A stretch of DNA of 64,000 nucleotides from an uncultured Alphaproteobacteria bacterium. GTDB taxonomy: Bacteria; Pseudomonadota; Alphaproteobacteria; CAAHEQ01; UBA3637. Below are positions 1 through 46,476 of this stretch, in pieces (positions within the stretch are counted from its first letter, which is position 1; the number at the start of each line of letters is the position of its first letter). The position numbers were made by a program, and so were the translations under genes. The notes beneath the pieces are model-generated. The model was not told the DNA's origin. It made no database searches and was given only the letters and a program-made list of their open reading frames with translations. The stretch lies in assembly GCA_934202735.1 (NCBI GenBank), contig CAKPYH010000004.1, positions 73,407 to 137,406 of the forward strand. The letters are read 5' to 3'.

Positions 1-131
1 TGTCGTATGGGCTCACCAAATATGGTGGGTGCCGGCGATATAAGGCTTGCTCGAATAAACCGGGCTACTTATCGTGAAATTCGTAGTTTGTAACACCCAC
101 CGCCTATTGTGGCAAAATTTGGTTGGGCTGA

Positions 132-608
132 ATGGGATTTTTTTTGACTATCTGCGCATTTTTTGGCCATCGCGATACTCCGATGTCAAGCAACATAGAA
201 AACCACCTAACAGAGTTTGTTAGGGATTTGATAAATTATCACAAAGTAGATGAATTTTGGCTGTGTGGACAAGGCACGTTTGATTGTTTAGCTCGTCTTG
301 TCATGAAAGAATTAAAAAAAGAATTTAATTGGATCAATCTTTGCATATTTCCCGCATATTATCCCAACAACGCTAAAATGGATTGGATTGAAGACAACGA
401 CTATGATATGATGTATCCTGATGAAGTCGCAAAAGCACCTCCACAAGTCGCTATCTTGCGCCGTAATGATTATATTGCTAAAAATGCTGATTATATCATT
501 TGCTACATCAAACATAATTCAGGTGGAGCATATACGGCAGTCAAACGTGCCGCAAAGAATGAAAAGAAAATAATTAACATAGCAAATACTTCAGATGTTA
601 CGTTCTAA
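132..608 (+). CDS. SLOG-superfamily protein, YpsA/DUF1273-like
   Basis: By-eye alignment to B. subtilis YpsA: ICAFFGHRD ~ LAITGYKP, WLCGQGTFD ~ LISGQLGVE, Rossmann-like layout. Confidence 0.5.
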   Translation: MGFFLTICAFFGHRDTPMSSNIENHLTEFVRDLINYHKVDEFWLCGQGTFDCLARLVMKELKKEFNWINLCIFPAYYPNNAKMDWIEDNDYDMMYPDEVAKAPPQVAILRRNDYIAKNADYIICYIKHNSGGAYTAVKRAAKNEKKIINIANTSDVTF

Positions 609-713
609 CACAATTTTTAATTTGTTTAAAAGGAAAATAATCATTTCCTAATCAAAATCAATGGTACAATATCCGCAAGTAAAAATGTTCCTTCCAATGT
701 AAAACGAATCGTT

Positions 714-1286
714 TTATTCATTTGCCATTAGCTCTTTTTCACTTTGAGGGATAACGTCCTCAACATCATTTACTATTGTCAATAATCGTAATACTTTTAC
801 ACTTAGGAAACCCTCTTTTGCCAGATGTTTTAGTAATTTATAGAAAGGCGTGAAAAAATTATTAATATTCACAATAATTATTGGTTTTTTGATTATTCCT
901 AACTGTTTTAATACCATGAGTTCGGAAATCTCGTCTATTGTACCCAGTCCTCCTGGCAATACACAAAAGACATCTGCCTTTGAAATCATTGAAAACTTAC
1001 GTATAGATAATTTTGAATAAATATGTAGTTCATTAAGGTATTCCTCTTTTGTTAGATCAGGTCGCTCTAAATCAAAAAGCTCTCGAATAGTAAAGCCAAC
1101 GACATAACCTCCATTACTTTTGCAATTTGAAGCAATGAATTTCATTAATCCTGTGTTTCCCGCCCCATAGATCAATTGAATGTTATTTTTTGCCAAAAGA
1201 ACCCCTAAACGTCTAGCGACATTCTCATAGGACACGTTCTTTCCAACCTTACCGCCACAAAATACGCATATCTTTTGTAATTTCAC
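714..1286 (-). CDS. LOG family protein (cytokinin riboside 5'-monophosphate phosphoribohydrolase-like, TIGR00730)
   Basis: YGAGNTGLMKF...GGYVVGF and VLPGGLGTIDEISE (PGGxGTxxE) motifs. Confidence 0.75.
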   Translation of the reverse strand: MKLQKICVFCGGKVGKNVSYENVARRLGVLLAKNNIQLIYGAGNTGLMKFIASNCKSNGGYVVGFTIRELFDLERPDLTKEEYLNELHIYSKLSIRKFSMISKADVFCVLPGGLGTIDEISELMVLKQLGIIKKPIIIVNINNFFTPFYKLLKHLAKEGFLSVKVLRLLTIVNDVEDVIPQSEKELMANE

Positions 1287-1324
1287 TAAATACCCCTTTT
1301 TACATTGTAAAATAGCAGTAAAAA

Positions 1325-1362
1325 AATTTCAACAAAAAGGTTCCTTTTGCTAAAAAGGGACC
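1325..1362 (-). terminator. Putative intrinsic terminator downstream of glyQS
   Basis: Imperfect hairpin ggtcccttt/aaaggaacc followed by T-run on minus strand. Confidence 0.3.
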
Positions 1363-1369
1363 TTTTATA

Positions 1370-2794
1370 TCAATCTCTTTGATGCTGATTGAAAAATTGT
1401 AGTATGCGCTTGGATGATACCGTAAAATCCTGTCTTGTGTAAAAATCATGAATATATTTTGGAAGATTTTCGATTTCAACATTAATCTGTTTCATTGTAT
1501 CACGATCTCTGACTGTAACCGGATGTCGGCTATCTTCTATTGTTGTATTATCTACTGTTACGCATAAAGGAGTGCCTATTTCATCGTGTCTTCGATAAGA
1601 CTTTCCTATACTTCCACTATTTTCTAAAATAATACGGCCGATTCCAAGTTCTTGCAATTCCCTTCTGAGCCGCATTGCTGTCTGAACCATTTGTGGATTA
1701 TTTTTTACAAGAGGAATGATAGCTACCTTTACTGGTGCTATATGTTTTTTAAACTTCATTACCGCTCTGGTTTTTCCATTTTCTAAAGTTTCCTTTGTGT
1801 ATGCTTCATTCATTAAAACGACCATTGCACGATCAAGTCCCGCAGCAGTTTCAACAACAAACGGTATAAATTCTTTGTTGGTTACTGGATCCCTGTAAGA
1901 CATTTTTACCGATGAGTCTGTATTTGGCATAACGCGTGCTTGAATGTCAAAGTTATTTTGGCTCTTTGTATGTGAACCCAGGTCAAAGTCAGTTCTATCG
2001 TGAATCCCTTCAATCTCATCAAACCCCCAGGGGAATTGGTACTCTATATCTTCGGCGGCCTTTGCATAATGCGCTAAAGTAGTGTGTGGTGTTGTTCTTA
2101 ACTTCTTCGGATCAACGCCCTGTTTTACCCACCACTCTATTCTGTTCTTTTTCCATTCGTTAAACCACTTTTCGTCTTCTCCAGGAGGAACAAAGAACTG
2201 CATCTCAGCTTGTTCAAACTCCCTCATTCGAAATAGGAAATTCCTCGGAGTAATTTCATTACGGAATGATTTTCCGTGTTGAGCAATACCAAATGGCAAT
2301 CTTCTGTTCATAGAATTAAGAACATTGATAAAGTTCAAATAACTGCCCTGAGCCGTTTCTGGTCTCAAATACGCAAAACTTGTGCCATCATCAACAGGAC
2401 CAATATTTGTTTTCATCATAAGCATAAACTTACGAGGCTCTGTTAAATCAGAAGAACCACAAGTATCACACTTTGTAGGATCTTTCATTTTATCCTCTCT
2501 CATTCTTGAGTGGCAATGTTTACATTCCACTAGTGGATCAGAAAAGGTATCTTCATGTCCAGAATGTTTCCATACCAATCGGTGTGAAAGATGTGAGCAT
2601 TCGACTCCCTCAATGTCGTCACGTTCATAAATCATGCTCCTCCACCAACTATCACGAATATTTCTTTTAAGCTCTATGCCTAATGGGCCAAGATCATATA
2701 CGCCTTTTAGCCCCCCGTAGATTTCAGAGTTTTGAAAAACAAATCCTCTAGCTTTGGCTAGTGCGACTAATTCTTCCATATTTTCAAAAGCCAT
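1370..2794 (-). CDS. glyQS: Glycine--tRNA ligase, alpha2 homodimeric type
   Basis: N-terminus [22 protein letters not shown] and full length match class II GlyRS (GlyQS type). Confidence 0.9.
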   Translation of the reverse strand: [474 protein letters not shown]

Positions 2795-2932
2795 TTTTTT
2801 CTCCTAAAATTTTACAAAAGACAACAAATATCGTAAAGATAAGCAACATTATATCATATTTTTTATTTATTGTCAACCTTTTTCTTTTTTTTGTATTTTT
2901 TTATAAATATTAACATCCGTTTCACAAATATA

Positions 2933-2960
2933 TTGACAATTTCATAACATCTTATATAAT
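2933..2960 (+). promoter_or_regulatory. Sigma70-like promoter TTGACA-16-TATAAT driving SerRS-like operon; RBS AAGGAG at 2998-3003
   Basis: ttgaca at 2933-2938, tataat at 2955-2960, in divergent intergenic region. Confidence 0.5.
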
Positions 2961-3012
2961 ACCTGCGTATATTTGTAACTTTCTGTTTCTTAAACACAAG
3001 GAGACTCCTCAT

Positions 3013-4233
3013 ATGATATCTCTAAGTTATCTAACGAATTTGACGCATTTCAATGAATTATGTGCTTCTATGCAAGCTCGTAATGCTTTAGATTTATTTA
3101 AAAGTTTTATCGAGCAATATGAGATGCTTTCAAGAGATGCTTCATTTCCGTCATTTCATGAACTTGAAAATAAAGCTCGTTCTATGACGTTGGAAGAAGT
3201 TAATAATCCTAAAGATGCTACATCAAAAATGCTTTCGACATACTTGAGCCTTCCTAATATATCACACAGAATGGTTCCAATCGGAACATCGTCAGCACAA
3301 AATATCATACTAAAAAAATCTAATCCAAAAACTTTTCAAGAAAAAATGGACTACGAACAAATAGCTTCTATTTTTGGAATTTTTTCTCAGAAAATGAATG
3401 AGAACATTGCGGATTCCGGTTTTCCTGTATTGTCTGGTGTCGGACCAAAATTGGAAAGAGCACTCATTGAACTAATGTTAGATCATCACGCAAGATATGG
3501 ATACGACGAAATATCTATGCCAATACTTACTCACGAACGTACATTTTTTATGGCCGGTTCGTTTCCTAAACATCAGCATAATGTGTATAAAATTCAGGAT
3601 ACATCATTGTATTTAAATCCAACGATTGAAATGCAGGAAACAAGTTTAATCAGAAACAGAATATTTGATTTTACAGAACTACCAATGAAGGTTGTTGGCT
3701 TTGCAAGATCATTTAGAATAGAAAAAGGAAGAAGTATGGATTTGTACACAAACCTGCATGAGTTTGGGAAAGTGGAATCTTTTACTGTTTGTCGAGAAGA
3801 TCAATGGGAAGAAGTGTTGAATTTTTTATCTAATATGCTTGAAGATCTTCTAGACAACCTTGGATTCGTATGGAGAAAATTATTACTCTGTACTGGAGAT
3901 ATGGGTCAAGCAGGTTCGTTCACTTGCGACTATGAAATTTGGGCACCGGGTCAAAAAAAATGGTTAGAGATATCGAGCCTGAGTTACCGATCTACTTTTC
4001 AGGCTGTACGGCTTAATGCGATATATCATACACCAGATGGAGAAGAAAAATACGTCCATACTTATAATACACCAGGGTTTGCAATTCCCCGAGTTTTTGC
4101 GGCATTATTGGAGTGTATGTATCAAGATGACGAAACACTCCGTATTCCGGATTGTCTAGTCGGACGTTGTGGATTGCCATCAGTTGTATCTAAAGATACT
4201 TATTTCTCACACTTAACTAAAAACAAAGGATAA
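3013..4233 (+). CDS. Seryl-tRNA synthetase-like class II aaRS paralog (possible amino acid ligase)
   Basis: LLCTGDMGQAGSFTCDYEIWAPGQKKWLEISSLS matches SerRS motif-3 region (LCTGDMGF..YDLEVW..EISSCS); N-terminal arm atypical. Confidence 0.7.
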   Translation: MISLSYLTNLTHFNELCASMQARNALDLFKSFIEQYEMLSRDASFPSFHELENKARSMTLEEVNNPKDATSKMLSTYLSLPNISHRMVPIGTSSAQNIILKKSNPKTFQEKMDYEQIASIFGIFSQKMNENIADSGFPVLSGVGPKLERALIELMLDHHARYGYDEISMPILTHERTFFMAGSFPKHQHNVYKIQDTSLYLNPTIEMQETSLIRNRIFDFTELPMKVVGFARSFRIEKGRSMDLYTNLHEFGKVESFTVCREDQWEEVLNFLSNMLEDLLDNLGFVWRKLLLCTGDMGQAGSFTCDYEIWAPGQKKWLEISSLSYRSTFQAVRLNAIYHTPDGEEKYVHTYNTPGFAIPRVFAALLECMYQDDETLRIPDCLVGRCGLPSVVSKDTYFSHLTKNKG

Positions 4234-4237
4234 AAAT

Positions 4238-4894
4238 ATGAACGATATACATACAAGTGAAAGTTCTGTAAAAGACTATTTTACGGATGTTTATAATGAA
4301 GAGGCTTCCTTAAATAATATTCCTTGGGTTACAGGAGCTGTTGGTATTGAGATATTAAAAAAAGTTATTGGAAAAAAATTTCCATTAGCTTCGAATGTTT
4401 TAGATGTTGGTTGTGGTTTTGGTACCGAGGCTGTTTTCTTGGCTAGACATGGACATCATGTTATTGGAGTTGATACAGACGCCACAATTATAGGCAAGGC
4501 TAAAGAGTACGCAAAGCTTTTAGATACATTTGTTGATTTTAGAGTCTGCAATTTTCTAAAAACCGTTGAACAAAGTGAATTATCCTCTAGATTTGATATA
4601 GTCATTGATCAAGGATGTTTTCATCATATTTTACCTCAAGATAGACAAGCTTATAAAAATGCAGTAGTGCATTGTTTAAAAAACGGTGGCAAGTATTTAA
4701 TGAGAGGTTTTTCAAATCTGATGCCTCCTTCCACCTCCGGGAATGGACCAGTACGATTGACATCCGATGATATTTTAAATACTTTCTTATCTGACTTTTA
4801 CGTAGATGAAATGTACGTATTTGACAATATTCCTGTTGTGGGAAAAGAAGATATGCCTCAAAAATTCTGGTTTGTTTCCTTAACAAAAAGGTAA
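4238..4894 (+). CDS. Class I SAM-dependent methyltransferase
   Basis: VLDVGCGFGTEAVFLA (motif I GxGxG) followed by acidic residue after beta2 (VIGVDTD). Confidence 0.7.
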   Translation: MNDIHTSESSVKDYFTDVYNEEASLNNIPWVTGAVGIEILKKVIGKKFPLASNVLDVGCGFGTEAVFLARHGHHVIGVDTDATIIGKAKEYAKLLDTFVDFRVCNFLKTVEQSELSSRFDIVIDQGCFHHILPQDRQAYKNAVVHCLKNGGKYLMRGFSNLMPPSTSGNGPVRLTSDDILNTFLSDFYVDEMYVFDNIPVVGKEDMPQKFWFVSLTKR

Positions 4895-4898
4895 TTTT

Positions 4899-6182
4899 AT
4901 GAAGAGGATACTTTTTTCGGCACAAGGTTTTGGATTTGGACCAACGGCTAAAGCAGCTGTTGTTGCCACGTGGCTTCAAAAATATAAGTCAGATATTGTA
5001 ATGGATTTCATAGGATCTGGTTCTGCATATGAGTTGGCCCGATCGAGAAAAAGTATTTTTACAAATATATACAATGGCAAACAGTTGGCAACAATTCGGG
5101 AAAAAATTAAAAACAAATATTATGATGCAGTTATTTCTGTTATGGCACCACAAATAACTTTGATAGCTCATGTTTTTCACATTCCTGTCTTTTTAATTGA
5201 TAGTTTGTACTGGTTTTGGGATTGGAGACCTGATCGTATAGATTTCCTTTCGGCATTAAAAATTCAAACTCTTGAAGATATTTCTGCCATTTTTCAACAA
5301 ATACATCCACACGAACAACAATTTTTAGCTCATCGCTATGCATCAATTTCGTATTTGCAGGCTTGTTTTGATGAAGAAAAATCTTCTCGTAATATAAACC
5401 ATATTAAAAGAAAAAAAATTATAGCACCTATAGTAGACACATCTTTTATTTCTAAAAAAGAAAGGAATAATGACAATACCGTGGTTTTAAGTTTTTGTGG
5501 ACAATTTAATCCAATTGTTGATTCTGGAGAAGTATTGGATTATTGCAAACTTGTGCTAGCAGTAACCCGTGATGCATTTATTGACCTTTTGAAAAAAACA
5601 AACAATCGTTTACTTATTATTGGGCATCCTTATGTTATAGAGAATCTCCCTCAAATTATTAAATCACTACAATTTCCTGATGTAGATTGTGAACATCTTT
5701 GCTATCAAGATTACTATAAGACTATTAACTCGGCAGCAGCTATCATTGCTCCACCTTCTTTGACTACTTTCTATGAAAGTTGTGCGTATAACAAATCGTT
5801 AATATTGTTGCCAGAGCAACATGACGGACATTGGCCAAACTTTAAAACAATTACTAGGTATGAGAGGAAAGAAAATACAATTTTCCCTGGAAAAATGTTA
5901 ACACCAATGATAACCGATTTAAATGGGATGAAAGAAAATGATATCAAGTCATTATATAAGAAAATCAGAAGTATAAACGAAAATCAAAATAATTCTCTGT
6001 TTATACAACTTAAAAATGCCTATACACAAATAATTAACGATATTTCGAATGCGAGTTATCGACAAACTCTTATGAAAAAGCAGAAGTTGTATTTTGAACA
6101 TTATTTTTCATTACCGTCTACAAAGGCGGAGGAAATTATATTAGATATCAAGGAGTATCTGAATGAAAGTATTAGGAATTGA
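4899..6182 (+). CDS. GT-B fold glycosyltransferase-like protein (uncertain)
   Basis: N-terminal FGFGP..AKAAVVA and C-terminal IIAPPSLTTFYESCAYNKSLILLP resemble GT1/MurG-like donor-binding region. Confidence 0.3.
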   Translation: MKRILFSAQGFGFGPTAKAAVVATWLQKYKSDIVMDFIGSGSAYELARSRKSIFTNIYNGKQLATIREKIKNKYYDAVISVMAPQITLIAHVFHIPVFLIDSLYWFWDWRPDRIDFLSALKIQTLEDISAIFQQIHPHEQQFLAHRYASISYLQACFDEEKSSRNINHIKRKKIIAPIVDTSFISKKERNNDNTVVLSFCGQFNPIVDSGEVLDYCKLVLAVTRDAFIDLLKKTNNRLLIIGHPYVIENLPQIIKSLQFPDVDCEHLCYQDYYKTINSAAAIIAPPSLTTFYESCAYNKSLILLPEQHDGHWPNFKTITRYERKENTIFPGKMLTPMITDLNGMKENDIKSLYKKIRSINENQNNSLFIQLKNAYTQIINDISNASYRQTLMKKQKLYFEHYFSLPSTKAEEIILDIKEYLNESIRN

Positions 6183-8283
6183 AGGTGAAATTGTTGAAGT
6201 AAAAAAACCAGTTCGCTTGGCTGTCATTGGTTGTGGCAGTCATGTATATAGGAATATTTTACCCTCTATACGCTTTATACCTAATGCTATTATAACTGTT
6301 TTTTGTGATAAGAATACTGAAAAAGCAGAATTATTCGCAAAATATCATGGCGTCGAGACATGGTGCTGTTCAGCGGAAGAATTACTGAAAATGTTCCCAG
6401 AGAAATTTGATGCTTTGTTAGTAATTGTTGGTTTCTCCCCAGATACAGGAAAGCCTTTGTATTCTGAAATTGTCCCATCCTTCCTAAAGCGAGGAATTCC
6501 AGTTTGGATGGAAAAGCCACCCGCAGCATCTTGTGAAGAATTAGCTTCATTTGTGGCTGCTTCTAAACAAGGAAATACCTTTTTCCAGACTGGTTTTAAG
6601 ATGATGTTTGCCCCCGCTCTACAACAAGTAAAAAAATTGATGAATTCTGATAAATTTGGCGTACCTCAATCATTTGATATATCTTATGCAGTTAGTTTTC
6701 CGTCAGACATTCGAGATCTCACAAATATTAATGCTAGAAGGTTCTTAGATGATATTGTCCACATTTTGTCCCAAATACAATTTCTATTTGGATGCCCATA
6801 TAGAATGACAACTTTCAGAGGCGGAGAAAACGATGCTATAGCCATATTAGAGTATAAAAATGGTCTTACTGGTGCCATTCGAATATTAGGTGGAATAAGC
6901 ATTACAGGTCCTGCTGAATATTTAAGAATTGTTGGTACCTGTGATAAAGTAGATAACGGGACTCTTATTGAATTAAAAAACTCCGAAGAAATAACTCTAC
7001 ATGAACCAGGAGATCCTGGCGCTTATGGAAGAGACTTTTCGTTTATTAGAACTGATGGAACACACACACATGTATGGAGCCCAAATCTTAGAAAACCATT
7101 GGGAGCATTGAGTTTACACTCACATTCCTTGTATGGCTATATCAATGAGTTGTCTGCATTTGTAAACAGCGTTGAAAATAAAATTCCATCGATCGTTGCA
7201 GGTATAGAAGATACGCAAGCTATTATGAAAATGTACGATGCGTTTGCCGCAGATAACGCAAAGCCTCATATTCTCTCAAAGAAAATACGCACAAGTACTT
7301 TACCTGATACTATTTCAATTATAGAGGAGTTTACGTGTGACAATTGTTATGGACGTATGTATGTTAAGGATGGCTGGACGGCCAAGTGTGAAAATTGTGG
7401 CAAGACGGTTCAACTAATAAAATTTGAAAATAGATGGTCTCAAACTTCAGTCCGCAGAATTTTAAAGGATGTGTTAGAAAATCTTTCTATTGTTCCAGAG
7501 ACTTTAGATGCATGCCTTAAGTATAATAAGGGTATTGCAAAAGATAATTATAGAAGATGTTTTGTTGATCTTCGCGTAAAGAAAAACGCAAAGAAAACTT
7601 ATGATTATTTTATAAAAATAGCAAAAAATCCGAATGATATCTTTCCAGAGACTGAATATAAAGCTTTATCTCTGTTAAAAAGTCTTCCCTTTGTTCCTTC
7701 TGTATATGGGAAACCAAATCCTAAATATATTATTCAGCAATATATTGATGGCATAACTCTTTATTCGTTATTGAAAACAAATTTTGAGTCCTGCAAAGAT
7801 ATTCTATTAAAATCGGTAAAATGTTTGGCTGATTTTCATAAGACCTTTCGAAAAAGTGGTAAAAAACCATTTGGGTATGTCCATGGAGATATAGATCCGT
7901 GGCAAATTATTGTAGAAAAAGATGGTAATATAACAATTATAGATTGGGAAGACTTTAAAAAGGATGGTAATCAAATACATGACATCTTAAATTTTGTATT
8001 CATGGTTGGTGTTATTTATCTAGGTGAGAATACATCTGCTAAAGAAAAAGCAGAAATAATTCTGTATCAGAAATCGAAATTAACTGAATTAATTTTTGAC
8101 ATGCTTTCTACTTATTCCGAGGAAACATTAATCCCTGTAAAAGACATAATTGATGAGATTCCATGTTATGCTAAAAATCGGCTTATTAGACTTCAAAAAA
8201 TGTCAAGACCATCTGAAAATTTCATATATTCCTACCTTTTAAACGTTTGCAAAAAGGATATTGTATGGAAGAAAACCCAATAA
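6163..8283 (+). CDS. Fusion protein: Gfo/Idh/MocA NAD(P) oxidoreductase + zinc ribbon + APH/ChoK-like kinase domain
   Basis: N-terminus VRLAVIGCGSHVYRNILPS Rossmann; CDNCYG..CENCGK ribbon; YVHGDIDPWQIIV..IIDWED kinase catalytic/DFG-like motifs. Confidence 0.6.
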   Translation: MKVLGIEGEIVEVKKPVRLAVIGCGSHVYRNILPSIRFIPNAIITVFCDKNTEKAELFAKYHGVETWCCSAEELLKMFPEKFDALLVIVGFSPDTGKPLYSEIVPSFLKRGIPVWMEKPPAASCEELASFVAASKQGNTFFQTGFKMMFAPALQQVKKLMNSDKFGVPQSFDISYAVSFPSDIRDLTNINARRFLDDIVHILSQIQFLFGCPYRMTTFRGGENDAIAILEYKNGLTGAIRILGGISITGPAEYLRIVGTCDKVDNGTLIELKNSEEITLHEPGDPGAYGRDFSFIRTDGTHTHVWSPNLRKPLGALSLHSHSLYGYINELSAFVNSVENKIPSIVAGIEDTQAIMKMYDAFAADNAKPHILSKKIRTSTLPDTISIIEEFTCDNCYGRMYVKDGWTAKCENCGKTVQLIKFENRWSQTSVRRILKDVLENLSIVPETLDACLKYNKGIAKDNYRRCFVDLRVKKNAKKTYDYFIKIAKNPNDIFPETEYKALSLLKSLPFVPSVYGKPNPKYIIQQYIDGITLYSLLKTNFESCKDILLKSVKCLADFHKTFRKSGKKPFGYVHGDIDPWQIIVEKDGNITIIDWEDFKKDGNQIHDILNFVFMVGVIYLGENTSAKEKAEIILYQKSKLTELIFDMLSTYSEETLIPVKDIIDEIPCYAKNRLIRLQKMSRPSENFIYSYLLNVCKKDIVWKKTQ

Positions 8284-10914: not shown

Positions 10915-11058
10915 TCTGTATACCAGCTACATGGTTAATTTGCGTAATTGACTACACAAAAACTTACTCAACTGACCGACTTATGAGAACATGAGATGGA
11001 GTAGAACTACCTGAAATTAAGTGATCTTGCCCGTATAAACCAATCAATTTTTATGAGA

Positions 11059-13128: not shown

Positions 13129-13140
13129 TTAAAAACTCCT

Positions 13141-13983
13141 CTAACATTCTTTTGACAAATACAATTTTGCAATTTCTTTCATTACATTTCTAATACGAGC
13201 AATATAATTAGCGCGCTCAGTCACACTAATAGCTCCTTTAGCATCTAACACATTAAAGGTATGGGAACATTTTAAGGCAAAATCATATGCAGTATATATG
13301 TTTTCTAAAGCCACCAACCGTTTTGCTTCTTTTTCGTAATTATTAAAGTCCAACAAAAGTTGTTTATCGTCGCATAGTTCAAAACAATACTTAGAATGAT
13401 CATATTCTCTCTGATGATAAATCTCCCCATATGTTTCTGCAGGACTGTACTGAAGATCGTATACATTTTCAACATTTTGAAGATACATTGCTATTCTCTC
13501 AAGTCCATAGGTAATTTCTACGGTAATTGGCTTACATGTCATTCCCCCAATTTCCTGAAAGAATGTAAACTGGGTAATCTCCATTCCATCTAACCATACC
13601 TCCCATCCTTTTCCAAAAGCCCCAAGAGTTGGAGATTCCCAATTGTCTTCGACGAACCTAATGTCGTGTTCTTTCTTATTAAATCCAATAAACTCAAGGC
13701 TTTTAATATAAATGTCGACAATATCTATCGGAGAAGGTTTTATAATAACTTGAAATTGGTGATGTTGATAAAGACGGTTAGGATTATCTCCATAACGTCC
13801 ATCAGCAGGACGTCTTGAAGGTTCAACGTATGCTCGCGCAAGCTTTTTATTTCCGAGCGAGCCAAAAAACGTCAAGGGATTCATAGTACCTGCACCCTTT
13901 TCAACATCGTATGGTTCCCCAATGGTGCACCCTTGTTCTTTCCAAAAATCACGTAGTTTTAATTTTAGTTCCTGAAAATCCAT
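13141..13983 (-). CDS. glyQ: Glycine--tRNA ligase alpha subunit
   Basis: [35 protein letters not shown] matches GlyQ. Confidence 0.9.
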
Positions 13984-14093
13984 CGTTTACCTCGTCAAAA
14001 TATAAAATCTCTTAGGATGATACACAAAAATAAGCCACTTGTCAATAATTTAGTAAAAAAATCCATTTATTTTTAACACATACAGATAACATA

Positions 14094-14430: not shown

Positions 14431-14459
14431 TATTTTTTCCTTTCTTTTTTTGAATTGAT

Positions 14460-39131: not shown

Positions 39132-40649
39132 TTACTCTATAGACCCTATTTTATCATTATTCGGCGACGTTTTTTCCTTCTTTCGGGTTAAATTTTCTAT
39201 TGTTAAACCTAATTCGGCGAGTTTAGCTTTTTCTCTCGCACGTTGTTCCAAAACTTCTTCCCAGTCCAAGCCTTGACCGGCACATTCGGCCTCTAATGTA
39301 GAAAGCCCGATATCCATTCGGATTTGGCAGGCCTGAGCTTCTTTGACCGGGTCAACCCAACCGCGACCTGGACCGATCCACTTACATCTTGTGTAAGCAT
39401 AGCGGTTCTCGTAAAAGTCCGGTGCATCAACCAAGCCTTTATTGACTGCTTCTTCCAGCCAAAGCTCATAAACCGGCGTAGCCCAGTAAGTTGATAGCCA
39501 TTGCCGGCGACCGTTAAAGTATCGCCAAGCCTCTAATAAAGCAGAACGGGCGAACGAGTAATTGGTCTTTGAGAAGTCTTTTAACAGCAATTCATAAGGA
39601 ATGTTCAACCCTGTGCCAATATGTCGGAGCAAGTTTTCAACGAAAGCACCATATGCCGAGTTCGGGCGAGACGGGGTAAATGGGGCGACCTTATCTCCGG
39701 GGAATATCGGGATAATCGAGCCACCCTCTAACTTAACTTGCCAATCTTTTTTGGCATTCAAGTATTCATCGCTTGAACCACCGAACAGTTCGTTTAAACC
39801 TTCATTATCCATTGGTGTTTCTATAAATGCGGCGATCATCGCGTTGACAATTGCGGCTTGAAGCTCAGATCGTTCATAATGATCCAACATTTTGAACATC
39901 GGCATTATGGAGCTCAGAACAGGTTTCCCACGGGATTAACCGATACGGTTGATGTCGTGAACGTGTAGAACTCGTCTCCGGCCAAAACTCGTGGTTGCCG
40001 GAATACGCTCCCAAGACTTTAGGTCTGTCCAAAAGTCGCCCGGGTGGTCCTTTTGAATATAGTAGGCAATCGGTGCGCCATACTGATCAATTTCAATACC
40101 ACCGCGGAGGGTCTTGCTATCCGTTTGACCGTTTGGATTTGAGAGCCGGTCCGGTTCCACCAATTGAATTGCGGTAGAGAACGGTCGATCTTTCAGCCAA
40201 AGTGGTATGGCCAAAGCCTCACCATTAATCAGGCAAGATTTGAAAACTTGTGTTGTTAGGCCATGAAAAGTTAAGGACTTGGCCGCATCACATTCAAAAG
40301 TTTCGGACCAGGATCGCCATAAACTTTCAACATGTGCCTGCCATTCTTCTTCCCATTCCTTGGTTTTGCCCAGTAGCCGATAGTCAGACTTGGCCGATAA
40401 ACGAAACCCGGTGCCGACAATGTTGTCGGACAAGGTTTGCATAGCACCGGCGGCAATTCCATGATTACGCGTTAAGTCACGCGACCGGGCAACGATCGTG
40501 TCCAATTCCGGTAGTAAGTCGCTGTCGGCTGAACCGCGGCCCGGTAGCCATGAGGCAATTTCTCGCAAAGTTTGCGAAGCTGCTTTGTGTGATGTGTCTG
40601 TCATTATTTTATCCAATAAAAAAGCCAGGTACAAAGCCCGACTTTTCAT
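39132..40649 (-). pseudogene. Lambda-type phage portal protein (gpB family) split into two ORFs
   Basis: ORF 39936-40649 matches portal N-half, ORF 39132-39905 C-half; 30-nt gap with stop. Confidence 0.65.
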
Positions 40650-40693: not shown

Positions 40694-41920
40694 TTATTGT
40701 TTTTGACGCATTCTTTGAAGTAGCATCATCTTATTTGGCGTATCTTGTAATGTACTAATAAAAAAGTTTCTAAACGCAGTAACATCTTCTTGTTTTGGAG
40801 TAAATAATTTCCAAATATGATTTTTTAACATAAGATTTGAATCCCGTGCCGCAGGCTTCATATGAGTATTGTTATACAAATTAAGACCTATGCGCTCCGC
40901 ATAGTACTCACTTCTTATAATAGATCCGACAAAATCATTTACAGAAGGATGGCGATAGCTTTTTGATTTTAAATAACGTACATAATCAATACCTGATTTT
41001 TTTAAGTGTTCAATGGCGTGTTCCAATAACTTATGCCCCGGATAATTGAAAGGTGTCATAAAATCAAATTTACTTAAATCAAACCGCTGTTCTTTTTCAC
41101 CTACAGAAAAACGATAATAATTAATCCAATTATATTGAATCGCCCCACATAAAAAATTCAAATCAGTGTTTTTCATTTTTTCGGTAAACCAATCCATCGT
41201 CTTTCCTGTACCAACATTATCATCAAGCAACACAACAGATTTTGCTTGAGCTAATTTTTCAGGGTTAGACATTAAATCAAAAAAATCATTTTTCTGACTT
41301 AATAGCGCTAACTCTTTTTCATCTTTTATGTATGTACTTTTTAAAAAATTACTATATTCCGCTCCATACATTGATTTCAAAAAAGGTCCAATATACAGGG
41401 AACCATATCCAGGCGTAATGATATGCGCATTATCCGATAAAGATAAATTTTGACAACAAATATACAATAAAGCCTTATTATCCAACTCAATAGCTCTCTC
41501 AGCTGACATTTTATTACCAGCGGGTAAAGTATCTTTTGACGGGACTATATCATTTTTTGAAAAAATACGAATGATGTTAGTTGCATCATCTTCTAAACAT
41601 CGTTTGCTCTTTTCGTATTCGTCAGAATTACTTTTATTTATGATATATTCAGGCAAGTTTGCATAATACACTTTTGCAGAACAATTCAGCATATTTTCAA
41701 GAATCATAAAGTTTCGCTTACTTGGTTCCCGGGTCAGAAACTTCTTTAGACATTCTCGTCTATTTGAAAGTTCGGTTGCGGTTTTTGGTTCATAATAACC
41801 AGAAGACCTTGAAAGGTATTCTTTTTCCGAAATCGGCGTGACAAAACTTTCTAAACCGACCACATCTTGTAAAGTCATAATCCCTAATACGTCAAATTCA
41901 GAAAGCTCTAATTGTTCCAT
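40694..41920 (-). CDS. Type I phosphoribosyltransferase-domain protein (408 aa)
   Basis: VVLLDDNVGTGKTM = PRPP-binding motif (cf HGPRT VLIVEDIIDTGKTM). Confidence 0.55.
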   Translation of the reverse strand: MEQLELSEFDVLGIMTLQDVVGLESFVTPISEKEYLSRSSGYYEPKTATELSNRRECLKKFLTREPSKRNFMILENMLNCSAKVYYANLPEYIINKSNSDEYEKSKRCLEDDATNIIRIFSKNDIVPSKDTLPAGNKMSAERAIELDNKALLYICCQNLSLSDNAHIITPGYGSLYIGPFLKSMYGAEYSNFLKSTYIKDEKELALLSQKNDFFDLMSNPEKLAQAKSVVLLDDNVGTGKTMDWFTEKMKNTDLNFLCGAIQYNWINYYRFSVGEKEQRFDLSKFDFMTPFNYPGHKLLEHAIEHLKKSGIDYVRYLKSKSYRHPSVNDFVGSIIRSEYYAERIGLNLYNNTHMKPAARDSNLMLKNHIWKLFTPKQEDVTAFRNFFISTLQDTPNKMMLLQRMRQKQ

Positions 41921-41931
41921 ACAAATAGCCT

Positions 41932-42552
41932 TTATTTCATTTGTTTTAAAAAATGAACTAAACTATTCAATTGTTTTTCAAACTCATATCTTGTAAAAAC
42001 AGTCTCTGTCTTAGCCTCTTTCCCAATAGAATGTAAAATATAACGATCAACTTTTTCCAGCGCTTGGCGATAAAGTGGATTTTGAAGGGCAGAAATATAA
42101 ACTTCATCAACTAAATCATCATATTCAACGCTGTGGCGATTTATTTTTTCCCCTTGCCAAAAAACCTCGCCCGTTTCTTTCCAGTCATAAGAAGATGCAT
42201 TTTGAATATAAACAGCATCTAACCCCGTATAGGAAAAAACATATTTTTGCACTTGGGGCTCTGGAAATTTAATTCCTTGAAAAAAAGATTCGATACTGTG
42301 CAACTGCTCTCCCCTCAATTCAAACTCGTAAGGGAATAAGTTAGACAGCAATTTTGACAGCGGATTTTTTAATTTATAGCCAACGTTAATCCATGAATCG
42401 CAAACAGGTATAATGTTGTTTTCTTCGTCTTCCAAAGGAAAACCGTCACAAAAAGCTTTATCATGAACGTATGTAATTTCTTTTTGAGAAAAAGCATAAT
42501 TTTTCTTAAACTCTTGAAACAAGCGCAGTTCTTTTTGAATACTTCTTTTCAT
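41932..42552 (-). CDS. NADAR (YbiA-like) domain protein
   Basis: FELRGEQLHSIESFFQGIKF matches YbiA FAAWPIKVDGKTWPTSEHYFQAQKF core. Confidence 0.5.
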   Translation of the reverse strand: MKRSIQKELRLFQEFKKNYAFSQKEITYVHDKAFCDGFPLEDEENNIIPVCDSWINVGYKLKNPLSKLLSNLFPYEFELRGEQLHSIESFFQGIKFPEPQVQKYVFSYTGLDAVYIQNASSYDWKETGEVFWQGEKINRHSVEYDDLVDEVYISALQNPLYRQALEKVDRYILHSIGKEAKTETVFTRYEFEKQLNSLVHFLKQMK

Positions 42553-42639: not shown

Positions 42640-42876
42640 TTAAAAACTCGCTTTCAAAATCCTCCGACGACAGGTTGCTGAGCCTTCGACTGCCGCAATT
42701 TGTGATTTAAGAGAACTGATATAACTTTCAAGGGCCGTCCGGCTGGTTTGATTGTAAGTGGTGGAACCGAAATTCCCGACACTGACCGAGACTTCCTTTT
42801 CACCGATCATCAATTTATGGTAGGCTTCTTCGGCCTCAGCCAGCCTGGTTTTCAAGGTTTCTACCTTTATAGCCAT
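42640..42876 (-). CDS. Phage head-tail joining protein gpW-like
   Basis: LKTRLAEAEEAYHKLMIGEKEVSV..ESYISSLKSQIAAVEG resembles lambda W; lies between terminase and portal. Confidence 0.55.
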   Translation of the reverse strand: MAIKVETLKTRLAEAEEAYHKLMIGEKEVSVSVGNFGSTTYNQTSRTALESYISSLKSQIAAVEGSATCRRRILKASF

Positions 42877-43484
42877 GGATCATTTACCTTTGTTGGTTGA
42901 ATTTGAATGAATTTCGGTTGTTTTTTAATCTTTATCTTTTCGCTTGTTTGGGTCGGTATAGCCGATTCAAGCTCTTGCCAGCCGCGCTCGGATATCCGAT
43001 CAAGACCATATATCGCCGCACCGGCACGCGCATAAACGCGGCAGTCCAACGCTTCGTTTCTTCGAGCCGGGTCCTTTTCCCAGACCGATTTTGGATAACC
43101 GTTGGTCACCTTGACTACCTGGCGTTCGGCCGTCAGTTGTTTGAAATACTTCTCAGCGTATGCCGGGAAGTGACAGCGGCCGAACTGCGAGGCATCTTCG
43201 CCCACACGTTCTATCTTCAGCCACCGGTAAAGCTCGGTTTTGATAACCGGACCGGACACGTTCCACACCTTCAGGCCTTTCTTTTTCGTATCAGCCTTTA
43301 AAGTGGACAGGATCATCGCGGTGTCGCGGCTTTGACCTTTGATGGCGACAACAGTCCTTGGCGCATTGGCCCGGGCACCATTGCCACCCCAAGCAGCCTG
43401 ATTAAACGGACGGACAAACAAATACACATCTTGCGGGACATAAATGGTATTGAGTTTGATGTATATCCGATTTTCAAAATTCAA
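42867..43484 (-). pseudogene. C-terminal fragment of terminase large subunit (gpA-like nuclease region); N-terminus replaced by AT-rich DNA
   Basis: Position upstream of W, NEALDCRVYARAGA-type segment, only 205 aa. Confidence 0.4.
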
Positions 43485-43524: not shown

Positions 43525-43941
43525 TTATTTCTTTAACCGCATGGCATTAGGAATCTGTTGAAAACCAAACTTTTTATAAAAATTCGGCAAACATGGGTTC
43601 TTTGGATCATAGAACAAACTAACCGTGGCAAAATTTTGCGCTTTAACATACTTAATGATTTCTTTCATCAAGATCGTTCCAATGCCTTGCCCATGATAAT
43701 TTGGATGAACCACAACATCATAAATCATACACATTTCTGAATCATCTACACATCGGGCAAAGCCTACAGTTTTTCTTCCATCCAATACAGACACCATAAA
43801 GGTAGATTGCTTTTTGACTACAGGCCATTGATCCGGACGATAGTTTCCCCACTTCAATAAGGAATGGATTTCGTCTATATCTTTTGTGTTAATGCGTTTT
43901 CCAATTTTAACTGATTTTTTCATTTTAACCACTCCTTGCAT
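43525..43941 (-). CDS. GNAT family N-acetyltransferase
   Basis: VVHPNYHGQGIGTILMKE motif. Confidence 0.75.
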   Translation of the reverse strand: MQGVVKMKKSVKIGKRINTKDIDEIHSLLKWGNYRPDQWPVVKKQSTFMVSVLDGRKTVGFARCVDDSEMCMIYDVVVHPNYHGQGIGTILMKEIIKYVKAQNFATVSLFYDPKNPCLPNFYKKFGFQQIPNAMRLKK

Positions 43942-44408
43942 GGGTTGCTCTGTTTTAAAATGTCTTTTAAGAAGTCATCAAATCTATTATCACAATTAGT
44001 AGCCCATCCGTACTCTGAATGTTCAGGACTTAGAGTTATCGTAGGCTCGCTTGATAATATTATTTCATAATTAAACTGAATATCATGTTTAATCCTATCT
44101 GTTTTAGAAATCTCTTCCGACACTCCTATTAACTTTACTTCTTTTTTGGAAATATCAAGGTCAACTTCCTCTTTCAATTCACGTTTAAGTGCTGAACATA
44201 AACTTTCTCCAGTTTTAACACCACCACCGGGAAATTCCCAAACATTTGGTAAAAAGTTATCTGCGGGGGATCGTTTTACAAGTAGAACTGTACCATTGTA
44301 AATGATTAATGCACAAACAGATAGTTTTATTTCTTCATTCATTAGATTAACCCCCTCTAATCCTTTTTCGTTTATCTCTTTTAACTGTTGCACCGTTAAT
44401 TTGAACAA
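43920..44408 (-). CDS. Nudix hydrolase
   Basis: GGGVKTGESLCSALKRELKEEVDL Nudix box. Confidence 0.75.
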   Translation of the reverse strand: MFKLTVQQLKEINEKGLEGVNLMNEEIKLSVCALIIYNGTVLLVKRSPADNFLPNVWEFPGGGVKTGESLCSALKRELKEEVDLDISKKEVKLIGVSEEISKTDRIKHDIQFNYEIILSSEPTITLSPEHSEYGWATNCDNRFDDFLKDILKQSNPCKEWLK

Positions 44409-44426
44409 AGCCCGACGATCCCAACG

Positions 44427-44752
44427 TTAAAAAACTTTTTTGATTTCGATACCGACTACTCCAAATTTATTTTGGGCTGCTGGTTTATAAAATTCCTCCA
44501 ACACCCTCAACAATTCTTCTTTTGAAGAAACACCTGCTCGATTAGGCTGAATAATGCTACATAACTCATCAAAATTTCGAGCGTGGTATAAATTTTTTAC
44601 AACTGCAGTAAAAGTATCGTTAGAATTTGAGGCATTGGCAAAAATGATGTTATCTCCAACCTTGATTTTTTACGCTTTTCATCAAAAAGACGCAATTCTA
44701 TAGTTTTACTACCTGATTTTAACAAATTATAATATTTTGTTTTAACATTCAT
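44427..44752 (-). pseudogene. ASCH-domain gene with frameshift in T6/A6 homopolymer
   Basis: Manual translation: MNVKTKYYNLLKSGSKTIELRLFDEKRKK (GxKxxExR) then frame change near 44666-44671, continues ..AVVKNLYHARNFDELCSI.. Confidence 0.45.
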
Positions 44753-44772
44753 GCTATGCATTATATTTCTCC

Positions 44773-45348
44773 TTGCATAATAAAAAAATAAAAGTTATAC
44801 TATCTATGTATAGCAAAAGGAGAAAAAATACGCAAATAAAAACTTATAAATCTTTTCACTCTGAACACAGTCTTTTATACAAAGATATGTTGGATTTAAC
44901 ATTGTCCATTAACAAGACTTACCCGAGATATACCGCTTGGTATAATAATACTTTTATTCCAGGATTAAAAAAGAATGAACGAATGTATATTGTCGCTTTA
45001 GACGATCAAAATATCCTTGCAGGCTGTATTTTTGCAAAAAATACACCAGATGAAAAAAAGATATGTACCTTATTCGTTAATCCTTTGTTCAAACGTCAAG
45101 GTATCGGAAAAAAGCTTTTAGAAACTGCCATAAAAGAACTAGGAGAACTACCTTTAATCACCGTATCTAGCAGAAATATTTCCCAATTAAAACCTTTATT
45201 AGATCATTTTGGTTTTCATTTATCCGCTACCAAAAAGGGAATATATGGCCAAAATGATACAGAGTTTTATTTTAATGATAAAAAAGCAGATTTAATACAA
45301 AAAGGATTACTTCCAATTCTTATTCAACAAATGCAACACTCAAGATAA
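44773..45348 (+). CDS. GNAT family N-acetyltransferase
   Basis: LFVNPLFKRQGIGKKLLETAI motif. Confidence 0.65.
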   Translation: MHNKKIKVILSMYSKRRKNTQIKTYKSFHSEHSLLYKDMLDLTLSINKTYPRYTAWYNNTFIPGLKKNERMYIVALDDQNILAGCIFAKNTPDEKKICTLFVNPLFKRQGIGKKLLETAIKELGELPLITVSSRNISQLKPLLDHFGFHLSATKKGIYGQNDTEFYFNDKKADLIQKGLLPILIQQMQHSR

Positions 45349-45495
45349 CTGTGTTAAGTCATTTTATGTTGGCAACATTTTTGCGTGTTTTGTTGCACCG
45401 TTAAATGGACAATGTGGTTTCTTTCTTTCATTAAATGTATGCGAAAAACGCCACCAACCGACGGATAATAAAAATATGGTTTCTTTTTCAATAAA

Positions 45496-46218
45496 CTATC
45501 CCCTAATTCCTAACAGGACAAAAGGAGTTGCATTATTAGGTGATAATTTATCCCTTTCTATCCAAACTGCACCATTTGAATCCAATCCATCCCCTTTTTG
45601 GGATGGCTTCCCCGCTATCATACAATCATACAGGATGCCAAAATGTTGCATAACGCCCTGTTCCCCGCTTTCTTTTGTAAAATCTGAAAAAATAACCTCT
45701 TTCTTCCTTTTGTTGCGAACAGAACACAACATGCAATTTGTTTCCTCCCTAATTTCACGAGCAACCGTTTGTTCGGGACTTTCACCTATTTCCGGACTAC
45801 CGCCGGGCAAGTCATAAAGCCCTGTATATGGCCCCCGCGCCTTCCGAATCACCAATACCTTATTTTGTTGCATAATGACACCGTAAACACCCCGATGTGT
45901 TCGCGTTACACGGCGATCACGTATAAGAAGATGGGCCTTTCCCTGCTCCAATTTATACAGATAATTTTCTATTTTTTGATTGCGATAAATTTTATGATTT
46001 GCTACCGTAATTAACACATTTTCCCCTTCTTTTTGGCGCCTTAAAATAGCGATACAGTCAGCATGACATGTTTGTCCGGAAATTTTTCCCAAAATATAAA
46101 CAGGAATTTTTGACTTATTTTTTTCCAAAAGACACCCTTGATAAACCTTTGATGATTTTTTTTCTACCTGATGAATGACAATTTTTTGTCCTAAATAATG
46201 GGTTGGAATATGATCCAT
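45496..46218 (-). CDS. Nudix hydrolase with ~110 aa N-terminal extension
   Basis: GLYDLPGGSPEIGESPEQTVAREIREETN Nudix box in C-terminal half. Confidence 0.6.
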   Translation of the reverse strand: MDHIPTHYLGQKIVIHQVEKKSSKVYQGCLLEKNKSKIPVYILGKISGQTCHADCIAILRRQKEGENVLITVANHKIYRNQKIENYLYKLEQGKAHLLIRDRRVTRTHRGVYGVIMQQNKVLVIRKARGPYTGLYDLPGGSPEIGESPEQTVAREIREETNCMLCSVRNKRKKEVIFSDFTKESGEQGVMQHFGILYDCMIAGKPSQKGDGLDSNGAVWIERDKLSPNNATPFVLLGIRG

Positions 46219-46476
46219 ACCTACTCTCCTTTACAATCAACATAATTGTTTAATAACCCAAATTTTAAAATACAAAAATTTGATTGTCAAATCTTTTTTA
46301 ATTAATTGGTTTGCAGTCATTTTTAACTTTGATGTAGAATAATTTCATTCCCAAAAGAATTAGTTGAGGAATTAGTGAAGTAATAAAATCAAGCACTTTT
46401 AAGATGATGAGTTAGATTGTTAGCGAAAATGGGTGCTTTTTGTGTTGAGTCCAATCGAACCAGCTTAAATGCTTGT

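Follow-up and report, generated by a model that had tools for sequence, protein, structure and literature searches.

The AT-rich blocks that interrupt a phage gene cluster in an uncultured human-gut alphaproteobacterium raise the question as to whether a prophage was colonised over and over from one foreign source, or whether the locus came about in a different way. We addressed this in a window of 64,000 nucleotides, equivalent to positions 43431-107430 of the 112,399-bp human-gut metagenome contig ena:ERZ27287494:k141_227068, which continues to the left of the window; metagenome contigs and loci used for comparison are labelled with L-numbers (L011, L102 and so on). The explanation that we regard as probable as a whole is that of a composite cargo island built on a dead prophage. 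Such an island would occupy 1-46.6 kb, at the 3' end of a tRNA-Lys gene in a chromosome of 50% GC, and its scaffold would be the late genes of a lambda-like siphophage, host-like in composition and belonging to a family common in human-gut metagenomes. Phages of this family appear to have fixed accessory slots between conserved genes plus a large cargo bay past the small genes that follow gene J (post-J genes), and AT-rich cassettes would fill the slots, most of them equipped with a putative terminator and a promoter-like site. With the phage dead and the cassettes apparently intact and constrained, the bacterium would in effect keep an island of defence-type and nucleotide-handling genes, with phage fragments as spacers.

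Base composition alternates on the kilobase scale between AT-rich and GC-normal across 1-46.7 kb, with sharp borders. Segmentation with a two-state hidden Markov model (HMM; 50-bp bins over 1-46.7 kb) gives 11 AT-rich segments of 31.4 kb in total at 32.2% GC (individual blocks 29-36%) and, between them, GC-normal pieces that add up to 15.0 kb at 47.2% GC; to the right of the island, the chromosome has 50.0% GC. At the level of genes, mean GC is 32.8% for cargo (n=31, range 25-39%), 46.1% for the phage backbone (n=23, range 39-51%) and 50.1% for the chromosome (n=21, range 44-57%). The ranges of cargo and backbone barely touch (Mann-Whitney p=5e-10), and those of backbone and chromosome overlap, with a gap of 3-4 points (p=3e-5). 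GC at third codon positions (GC3) is 25% in the cargo versus 48% in the backbone, as would be expected for morons, the accessory genes of phages. Tetranucleotide profiles correlate at r=0.90 within chromosome blocks, 0.79 among phage blocks, 0.71 between phage and chromosome, and r=0.52 among cargo blocks. Composition therefore falls into two well-separated classes, with a small offset between phage and host, and the AT-rich class itself is not uniform. A preliminary description of the window had proposed a tri-modal composition of ~30, ~48 and ~57% GC; both the HMM and the gene-level values confirm that GC is not uniform and that the alternation of AT-rich DNA and backbone is real, whereas the chromosome lies at 50.0% and not ~57%, which makes tri-modal an overstatement.

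A dead prophage with lambda-type late genes

The GC-normal pieces encode late genes in lambda order on the minus strand (Pfam): the terminase gpA nuclease domain, gpW, a lambda-family portal, an S49 protease, tail tube, G, tape measure, DUF1833 (L), NlpC/P60 (K) and a gpJ-like protein. Intact relatives show what the complete set looks like. They run from TerL (646 amino acids, aa), W and portal (490 aa) across a slot to the protease (370 aa) and gpD-like and gpE-like capsid genes, continue with a 77-aa gene, an FII-like gene, DUF6441, a 141-aa gene, tube and G, and after a further slot end with the tape measure protein (TMP, 881 aa), M, fibres, L, K, J, four small genes and the cargo bay. The clean relative L102 has 87-92% nucleotide identity to the backbone in the window, and the tube protein is found in 17 IMG/VR contigs, mostly at 88-93% identity.

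Compared with these phages, TerL in the window is reduced to its C-terminal 205 aa (nuclease domain; GpA_nuclease profile positions 156-291 of 294), which together with gpW (Pfam gpW) occupy 42640-43484 on the minus strand; the ATPase two-thirds are gone, and homology to relatives stops at 43443. The S49 prohead protease is an N-terminal fragment of 173 aa (36076-36597, minus strand; Pfam Peptidase_S49, profile positions 5-47 of 154), and the ~3.1 kb that follow in the reference phages L105-L110, with the protease C-terminus and the gpD-like, gpE-like capsid, FII-like and DUF6441 genes, are absent. The lambda-family portal gene (39132-40649, minus strand; Pfam Phage_portal_2, 2.5e-97) is a pseudogene split over two open reading frames (ORFs), its in-frame stop at 39936-39938 taking the place of a Gln codon in four relatives. 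In the TMP pseudogene (24472-27056), comparison of the translation with L025 and L028 reveals a Gln-to-stop change and then a frameshift. Recoding of stop codons, considered as an explanation for the split portal and TMP, is ruled out by the Gln codons in the relatives, and TMP is frameshifted besides. The 141-aa head-tail gene, intact in L102 and L105 and located before the tube gene in relatives, persists as a frameshifted remnant (34376-34687, minus strand; tblastn matches in two frames), and the T frame is lost at the cassette between G-T and TMP. Pfam scans of the window and of the left part of the contig detected no early genes in the element. With TerL and protease truncated, the capsid region including the gpD-like and gpE-like genes deleted, portal and tape measure mutated and no integrase found, the prophage is dead. 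The element named a prophage in the preliminary description is thus phage-derived in origin and gene order, but it is no functional prophage, with essential genes replaced by two blocks and portal and TMP turned into pseudogenes.

The remaining backbone genes, all on the minus strand, comprise the tail assembly chaperone G and tail tube (30186-31708; Pfam Phage_tube_2, 7e-51), a tail module with gpL-like DUF1833, fibre genes, a gpM-like gene and the TMP pseudogene (20581-27056; Pfam), a gpK-like NlpC/P60 tail protein (19292-19696; Pfam NLPC_P60) and a gpJ-like tail tip protein (15918-18149; Pfam Phage-tail_3 and FNIII-A_GpJ; 48% GC) with 79-90% amino-acid identity to relatives. Four small conserved post-J genes (14042-15810, minus strand) come after J in every relative and are contiguous in L085, L086, L087 and L102. 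Two of them have transmembrane segments, and the set had been called a lysis cassette; none of the four has a family match, and a 199-aa ORF lacks a Pfam match.

Accessory slots across the phage family

Lambdoid phages carry morons, in the concept of Hendrix and Juhala: extra genes between neighbouring genes, with their own terminator and promoter and thought to be expressed from the prophage. The cassettes in the window are like these in lying between adjacent genes and in their deviating composition, and several have candidate terminators or promoter-like sites at their ends. Relative to clean relatives, five of them are precise intergenic inserts, namely those with a GNAT acetyltransferase, a toxin-antitoxin (TA) pair, a phrog_8766 protein (g22), a helicase, and a phosphoribosyltransferase (PRTase)-like protein with a gp30.3-family protein. 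Empty sites for these five and for the cassette with a kinase, an ASCH fusion and a radical-SAM protein are present in L102, L025, L027, L028 and L105. Two further blocks are replacements of essential genes: one, with a 210-aa protein, a 70-aa ORF and a Nudix hydrolase, takes the place of the capsid region, and the other, at the right end of the island, that of the terminase ATPase and everything upstream. The clean relatives bear out the sites at which the preliminary description had placed the blocks, i.e. the lysis region, K/J, L/K, G-T/TMP, protease-to-tube (two blocks), portal/protease, W/portal and beyond or into terminase, and moron positions are a fair description for most of them. The window differs from lambdoid morons in having at least 10 slots, a cargo to backbone ratio of 2:1, a dead carrier and two blocks that replace essential genes. 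It also differs in that the low GC of its cargo has been kept over long co-divergence and is therefore no mark of recent import.

Slots in the same positions hold different systems in close relatives. At the portal/protease junction, a 1.3-1.7-kb block of 32-36% GC is present in seven of the nine IMG/VR relatives that cover it, encoding an AAA_14/DUF4143-type ATPase or another Fic protein. The same slot in six intact phages from other samples (L105-L110) contains an allele of SoFic, a recognised defence system that is also part of the cargo in the window; the index of the contig collection lists this allele in 236 blocks. The G-T/TMP slot of relatives is occupied by HipBA, by a 152-aa gene or by a 2.7-kb block, or is empty, and the DNA that follows the post-J genes in relatives, 9 kb with 27-43% GC, encodes a type I restriction-modification system plus helicases, SNF2 plus a methylase, or others. 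Fixed backbone hotspots with interchangeable anti-phage genes have been described for P2-like phages and P4-like satellites (PMC9122126). The phage family in the window resembles these in its portal/protease slot, with SoFic, another Fic, an AAA_14/DUF4143 ATPase and/or a reverse transcriptase (RT), and in its G-T/TMP slot, with either HipBA or the kinase/ASCH/radical-SAM set. It is unlike them in being a family of gut Alphaproteobacteria, in having its slots inside head and tail operons, and in having one match to a validated system. A further variable slot lies just upstream of TerL in L105-L110 (locus 2500-4320), occupied by a restriction enzyme of the GmrSD type or else by a T5orf172 protein; close to it are a ParB-methylase fusion and, in some relatives, an S-adenosylmethionine (SAM) synthetase.

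Four cassettes, those with the helicase, the kinase, the TA pair and SoFic, have the best terminator hairpins, each a hairpin followed by a T-run, at their 3' ends, and promoter-like sites with 11 of 12 positions matching lie a short way upstream of the TA genes, the Nudix gene and the right-hand Nudix gene. The cassettes may be expressed in the lysogen. As to function, the three Nudix and three GNAT proteins among the 31 cargo ORFs are probably many more than the average for a typical genome. The idea that the cargo is a defence and anti-defence toolkit is plausible, with one gene alone, that for SoFic, being a confident member of a validated family. This earlier idea thus stands for SoFic and, as defence-type genes, for the Panacea (PanA)-type pair and the RT with its structured RNA; beyond SoFic the PADLOC matches, those to RT models included, are weak or generic, and the Nudix proteins match only the candidate model PDC-S07.

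Strain polymorphism, divergence and competing explanations

The 3' end of tRNA-Lys(UUU) (46519-46594, minus strand; ARAGORN and Rfam, with the Rfam scan returning this tRNA only) forms the right boundary of a variable island, and homology between strains starts at 46375-46516. Among strains with an identical TraX protein and flanks that are >99% identical, the locus has at least six different occupants: the full mosaic; versions that lack RT and SoFic and have portal joined directly to protease (L011, L012); versions without tube and helicase; a terminase fragment enclosed by AT-rich genes; only a NERD gene; and only a GrpB gene. Different deletions occur across L011-L015. The island thus abuts a tRNA 3' end, and its blocks are polymorphic in presence and absence between strains of one species at one locus. 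An integron-type cassette array was considered as well and rejected, given that there are no repeat families and no integrase; a repeat search over 1-47 kb returned low-complexity chance matches only, and no cassette-end repeats, insertion sequence ends or attC-like sites.

Divergence between strains follows the compositional borders. Chromosomal flanks differ by 0.6-0.8% and most cargo by 0.7-1.9%, with a few diverged patches of up to 3.8%, whereas the interleaved backbone pieces differ by 5-15% (p 1e-15 to 1e-146). The change from one level to the other takes place no more than ~100 bp from a GC boundary. Between the window and L012, for example, the chromosomal flanks are 0.83% apart, and the tube piece is 12.2% divergent though the cargo on either side is nearly identical. 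The backbone pieces have a synonymous divergence (dS) between strains of 0.24-0.96 and a ratio of non-synonymous to synonymous substitution rates (dN/dS) of 0.04-0.27, and the fragments of different islands are as distant from each other as from free phages. Decay in situ is ruled out as the source of backbone divergence by this dN/dS; because it is low, the divergence must have arisen in functional phages. The simplest reading is that backbone fragments have repeatedly been replaced by homologous recombination with infecting relatives and that the cargo travels with the chromosome. The remaining fragments would then serve as homology arms for recombination with circulating relatives, which would lead to 5-15% divergence in the backbone versus ~1% in cargo and chromosome. 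Exchange between temperate phages and defective prophages is documented (PMC3945230): dead prophages exchange DNA with infecting relatives through diverged homologous segments, and a pool of defective prophages has been described for E. coli O157 (PMC2669165). The present case differs in that exchange is deduced from sequence, i.e. from backbone fragments 10-20x more divergent than chromosome and cargo and from low dN/dS, and in that no recombinase gene is left.

Cargo alleles also spread over diverged backbones. Among intact phages, SoFic has 0-1% mismatch with flanks that are 4-14% apart, a pattern that shows such spread, and the helicase suggests it too: its block (31720-34350) has a single difference from L012 in 2631 bp, significantly fewer than expected (p=7e-9), which points to a very recent exchange of that cassette alone. 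These data bear on the possibility that the cassettes move actively between diverged phages and prophages, reaching the junctions through homing or site-specific insertion, so that the island is a by-product. In addition to the SoFic alleles and the helicase, the latter set against chromosomes that differ by 0.83%, the divergence switch within 100 bp of cassette ends and the pairing of the RT cassette with two different neighbours would fit this possibility, which we nevertheless consider unlikely. No shared terminal repeats, target-site duplications, homing endonucleases, transposases or integrases are found in or beside the cassettes, their ends are unrelated terminator hairpins, and homologous recombination in conserved flanks, which is documented (PMC3945230), suffices.

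Poorer still are the prospects of the scenario implied by the preliminary description, namely that a functional or recently functional prophage was colonised at least eight separate times from one donor lineage of ~30% GC. The narrow 29-36% GC range of the blocks and the five precise intergenic insertions agree with it. The tetranucleotide signatures of the cargo, on the other hand, are heterogeneous, and homologues point to different sources: Alphaproteobacteria metagenome-assembled genomes (MAGs) for the aminoacyl-tRNA synthetases, a phage-only family, and Vibrio, Shewanella and Mesorhizobium for the helicase. AT-rich cargo is already present in several slots of intact relatives, and the prophage lacks essential genes. 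Low GC has, moreover, persisted within the phage family. Between the window and the alleles of intact phages, SoFic has a dS of 0.48-0.50, a dN/dS of 0.05 and a GC3 of 25% versus 30%; this depth matches that of the neighbouring portal gene (dS 0.39-0.76), and the GC3 of the neighbours is 45-50%. A 14-kb module at the left end of the island has GC3 of 21-31% in hosts of both 50% and 44% GC at saturated dS (dN/dS 0.03-0.19). The phrog_8766 family occurs in phages of 36-60% GC, and in L051 (59.5% GC), the GC-rich case that we checked, the gene is less GC-rich than the backbone. Cargo of one donor GC class is thus at odds with the heterogeneous tetranucleotides (r=0.52), with homologues of differing affinity and with low GC3 kept during co-divergence. 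Because GC3 of 21-31% was kept from dS 0.5 to saturation, in hosts of 44% and 50% GC, the data argue for low GC as a stable property of the accessory pool and not as the imprint of one recent donor. AT-biased mutation combined with weak selection on composition, tolerance that depends on silencing, and constant circulation across hosts are candidates for the cause of the AT-richness.

A domesticated tail device (F-type tailocin) or an element akin to a gene transfer agent, kept for its structural genes, could account for tail genes from tube to J that are mostly full length and for missing head genes, and yet we deem it very improbable: the tape measure gene is broken by a stop codon plus a frameshift and the T frame is interrupted too, other strains keep tail-module fragments only, and portal, terminase and protease are lambda-type. 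In the gene transfer agent RcGTA, these three proteins are HK97-type.

The alternation could also be an artefact. Logan ERR7738553_9573 (57.8 kb), assembled independently, reproduces this arrangement from end to end. Most junctions are also spanned by contigs of other samples and assemblers. Of L011 and L012 (Hadza, SPAdes), L012 spans five at 29.4-36.6 kb and L011 those of TMP/kinase and radical-SAM/G; L013 spans terminase/GNAT and Nudix/tRNA, L105-L110 portal/SoFic and L113-L119 protease/RT, and the diverged relative L043 covers L/g22/K and post-J genes/glyQ. A chimeric assembly of a 32% GC and a 50% GC organism, a concern given the short-read metagenome source and the break of the Logan ERR7738553 island and chromosome contigs near the tRNA, is excluded for most junctions by the contigs of other samples and assemblers and has next to no probability, the 11 alternations at gene boundaries in phage gene order also being unlike a chimera.

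Some observations sit uneasily with the composite island as we explain it. The junctions of GNAT with the post-J genes, of TA at K/J and of PRTase/gp30.3 at W/portal are seen only in two assemblies that perhaps share a sample. Totals of promoter-like and terminator-like sites equal the shuffled expectation, so that their positions alone are suggestive, and SoFic is the only confident match to a validated defence system, the other PADLOC matches being generic or weak. Pfam scans found no recombinase or integrase family in the element, and neither the window nor the 10 kb left of it contains an att repeat of the tRNA-Lys 3' end of at least 13 nt. Finally, the divergence contrast can be read in two ways, as overwriting of the backbone or as spreading of the cargo, and for the helicase block recent exchange of cargo is favoured.

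Decaying prophages that sit at a tRNA gene and carry accessory and defence hotspots are already known, and this one is well resolved; the two notable features are the long-term low GC of the cargo and the inverted divergence of cargo and backbone. The locus provides a population-level picture of a prophage after its death, in which cassettes would be kept and constrained and structural genes would decay yet recombine with live relatives. It also bears on the question why accessory and horizontally moved genes are AT-rich, for which a maintained equilibrium rather than a donor imprint is argued. For future work, the phage family is frequent in human-gut metagenomes and, with at least five cargo slots, can be mined for defence genes.

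Cassette contents and the left-hand module

The GNAT acetyltransferase cassette (14460-14993, plus strand; Pfam Acetyltransf_1, 1.6e-10) is a 580-bp insert between two post-J genes that overlap in relatives, and its site is empty in L102. The TA cassette (18266-19163, minus strand) consists of a Panacea antitoxin (18645-19163; Pfam SocA_Panacea, 4.7e-13) and a putative toxin of 125 aa (18266-18643) without a family match; the K/J insert measures 1121 bp, versus 45 bp in L102. A promoter-like site (11/12) at 19265-19238 precedes the two genes, and a terminator follows them at 18190-18169. The antitoxin-toxin architecture of Panacea is established (PMC8832971). The pair in the window conforms to it in that the Panacea-domain gene directly precedes a small unrelated ORF on a mobile element, and differs in that the partner lacks a family match and its toxicity is presumed. 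At the K/J site of L102 (9943-9989), two copies of ~36 nt, containing the J ribosome-binding site and first codons, lie 45 bp apart, and remains of such copies flank the TA cassette in the window (18100-18200 and 19250-19300); this duplication may be a trace of the opening of the slot. At the L/K junction, a membrane-anchored protein of phrog_8766 (19717-20520, minus strand; PHROGs 4.9e-73; 30% GC) is encoded by an 897-bp insert that is absent from L102, L025 and L085 and is found in the same slot in the low-GC contigs L043 and L045.

The G-T/TMP slot holds a nucleotide-kinase-like P-loop protein, a methyltransferase-ASCH fusion and a short radical-SAM protein (27106-29971, minus strand; Pfam AAA_17, ASCH and Radical_SAM), in a 3094-bp insert that removed ~106 bp including the T frame and ends with a terminator at 27083-27064; the kinase and the radical-SAM protein have weak PADLOC matches to VakA and pVip. 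Between the 141-aa gene and tube lies a 2697-bp insert, versus 28 bp in L102, which encodes a UvrD-like superfamily-1 helicase of 845 aa (31737-34274, minus strand; Pfam UvrD_C_2 and AAA_19; 31% GC) and has a terminator at 31715-31693. This helicase is rare and has weak PADLOC matches to GajB; its homologues are uncultured sequences at 60% and 40-49% identity, and the nearest named ones are ~890-aa proteins of Vibrio, Shewanella, Photobacterium and Mesorhizobium at ~30%.

The block that stands in for ~3.1 kb of head genes (34721-35991, minus strand) encodes the 210-aa protein, the 70-aa ORF and a Nudix hydrolase (Pfam NUDIX, 1.2e-15), with an 11/12 promoter-like site at 36053-36025 and the same junctions in strains L011 and L012. 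The 210-aa protein had been described as CYTH-like, an assignment that finds no significant support: Pfam gives it no family, the only PDB match is 1yem (E=0.24), and a single-sequence AlphaFold model with a predicted local distance difference test score (pLDDT) of 40 was not used. Next to it, the RT cassette (36598-37697, plus strand) consists of a 248-aa RT (36951-37697; Pfam RVT_1, 8e-17) and ~360 nt of strongly structured upstream RNA; the 363 nt folded do so far better than shuffled sequences (z=-5.3). Its best PADLOC matches (~1e-17) include retron-type and other defence RT models, the protein being short at 248 aa; no Rfam match was obtained for the cassette, and no obvious effector is encoded in the same operon. 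The cassette is also present in intact relatives, beside SoFic or an AAA_14/DUF4143 ATPase, and is absent from strains L011 and L012. It looks like a unit of RT plus non-coding RNA of the retron or defence-associated RT (DRT) type.

SoFic is a single-gene AMPylator that acts by abortive infection (PMC12249575). The gene in the portal/protease slot (37988-39052, minus strand) is a full-length match (PADLOC SoFic, 1.2e-50) with a Fic domain and a C-terminal winged helix, and is followed by terminators at 37903-37883 and 37839-37811. It is unlike the described system in being phage-carried at a junction of structural genes, and its AMPylation activity and protection against phages are predicted. 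Exactly at the W/portal overlap, a 2033-bp insert between two genes that overlap in relatives encodes a 408-aa PRTase-like protein and a protein of the T4 gp30.3 family (40694-42552, minus strand; Pribosyltran 8e-4, below the cut-off, and Phage_30_3 7e-28). The latter had been taken for a NADAR protein, which is not borne out: it matches Pfam Phage_30_3, with no NADAR model and no PDB relative. IMG/VR scans returned no close relatives of the helicase, SoFic, PRTase-like or PanA proteins.

The right block (43525-46218, mixed strands; Pfam) comprises a GNAT, a Nudix hydrolase, an ASCH fragment, a GNAT on the plus strand and a 240-aa Nudix hydrolase. It replaces the 5' part of the terminase gene and all that lies upstream, up to tRNA-Lys, and the same block adjoins a terminase fragment and tRNA-Lys in L013. 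A second set of Nudix, GNAT and ASCH genes is located 6-9 kb to the left of the window (L001 16992-20380), together with DUF3850, two Ham1/ITPase genes and a shikimate-kinase-like-ASCH fusion; in L013 both sets are nearly side by side, with only the terminase fragment between them. The combination of Nudix, GNAT and ASCH may be a functional nucleotide-handling module. As for the domain inventory of the preliminary description, Pfam supports the three Nudix proteins, LOG, Fic, RT, the UvrD-like helicase and the Panacea antitoxin; of the four GNAT proteins, three are in the window and the fourth lies ~6 kb to the left on the source contig. ASCH is likewise confirmed by Pfam, with one of the two copies, reported as frameshifted, being a 54-aa fragment, and matches for SLOG and PRTase are present, below the Pfam cut-off.

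The most unusual single component of the island is the AT-rich module at its left end (132-13983; Pfam and NCBIfam; 33.8% GC), a cargo bay beyond the post-J or lysis genes. Its AT-rich block extends from 201 to 14150 and is a conserved aminoacyl-tRNA synthetase and sugar-modification module, not a small moron. It encodes a SLOG-like protein, LOG, a complete alpha2 glycyl-tRNA synthetase (GlyRS), a ligase that resembles seryl-tRNA synthetase without the N-terminal tRNA arm, a flavin adenine dinucleotide (FAD) protein, a DegT/PseC sugar aminotransferase and a complete glyS/glyQ pair. Also present are a SAM methyltransferase with a weak match to glycine/sarcosine N-methyltransferase, a GT-B glycosyltransferase whose best family match is cytosylglucuronate synthase (E=1.8e-7) and a GFO/IDH sugar oxidoreductase fused to a kinase-like domain. 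The same gene order is found beside a diverged relative prophage in L043 (9147-21530) and L111 (10001-21425), where the host chromosome has 44.3% GC and the GC3 of the phage backbone is down to 27-38% in L, K and J. The enzyme set parallels that of the gougerotin pathway (pathway summary in PMC12835213). Tentatively, and with considerable doubt, the AT-rich fraction might be a long-lived, selected accessory genome of a gut phage family that shuttles via homology arms between phages and dead chromosomal copies, with the left module as a phage-borne pathway to a gougerotin-like aminoacylated amino-sugar nucleoside or to an amino-acid-decorated surface sugar, these two products being equally open.

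To the right of the island, 46.7-64 kb carry alphaproteobacterial-style housekeeping genes (RNase J, BirA, SufE, Obg, RsfS, DnaB, GrpE, RNase PH, RdgB and RsmI), and close relatives of some window proteins come from MAGs labelled 'Alphaproteobacteria bacterium'. The right flank had no match in an E. coli genome search, and scans of GTDB species genomes with the AT-rich glyS and with TraX came up with nothing. The synthetases of the left module have similar affinities. The AT-rich glyS shares 56-71% identity with its counterparts in Alphaproteobacteria MAGs and only ~40% with Firmicutes sequences, and alpha2 GlyRS is 61-69% identical to proteins of 'Rickettsiales' and 'Alphaproteobacteria' MAGs. 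In the two MAGs that we examined (57% and 64% identical glyS), the native glyQS genes have 41-43% GC in genomes of 39-44% GC. In L039-L041, which are MAGs of related gut Alphaproteobacteria, native glyQS groups with Firmicutes at ~40% identity, with nothing closer from other Proteobacteria in the list, which may mean that GlyRS was replaced long ago in this clade. The left module itself is a case of two full glycyl-tRNA synthetases carried by one phage element.

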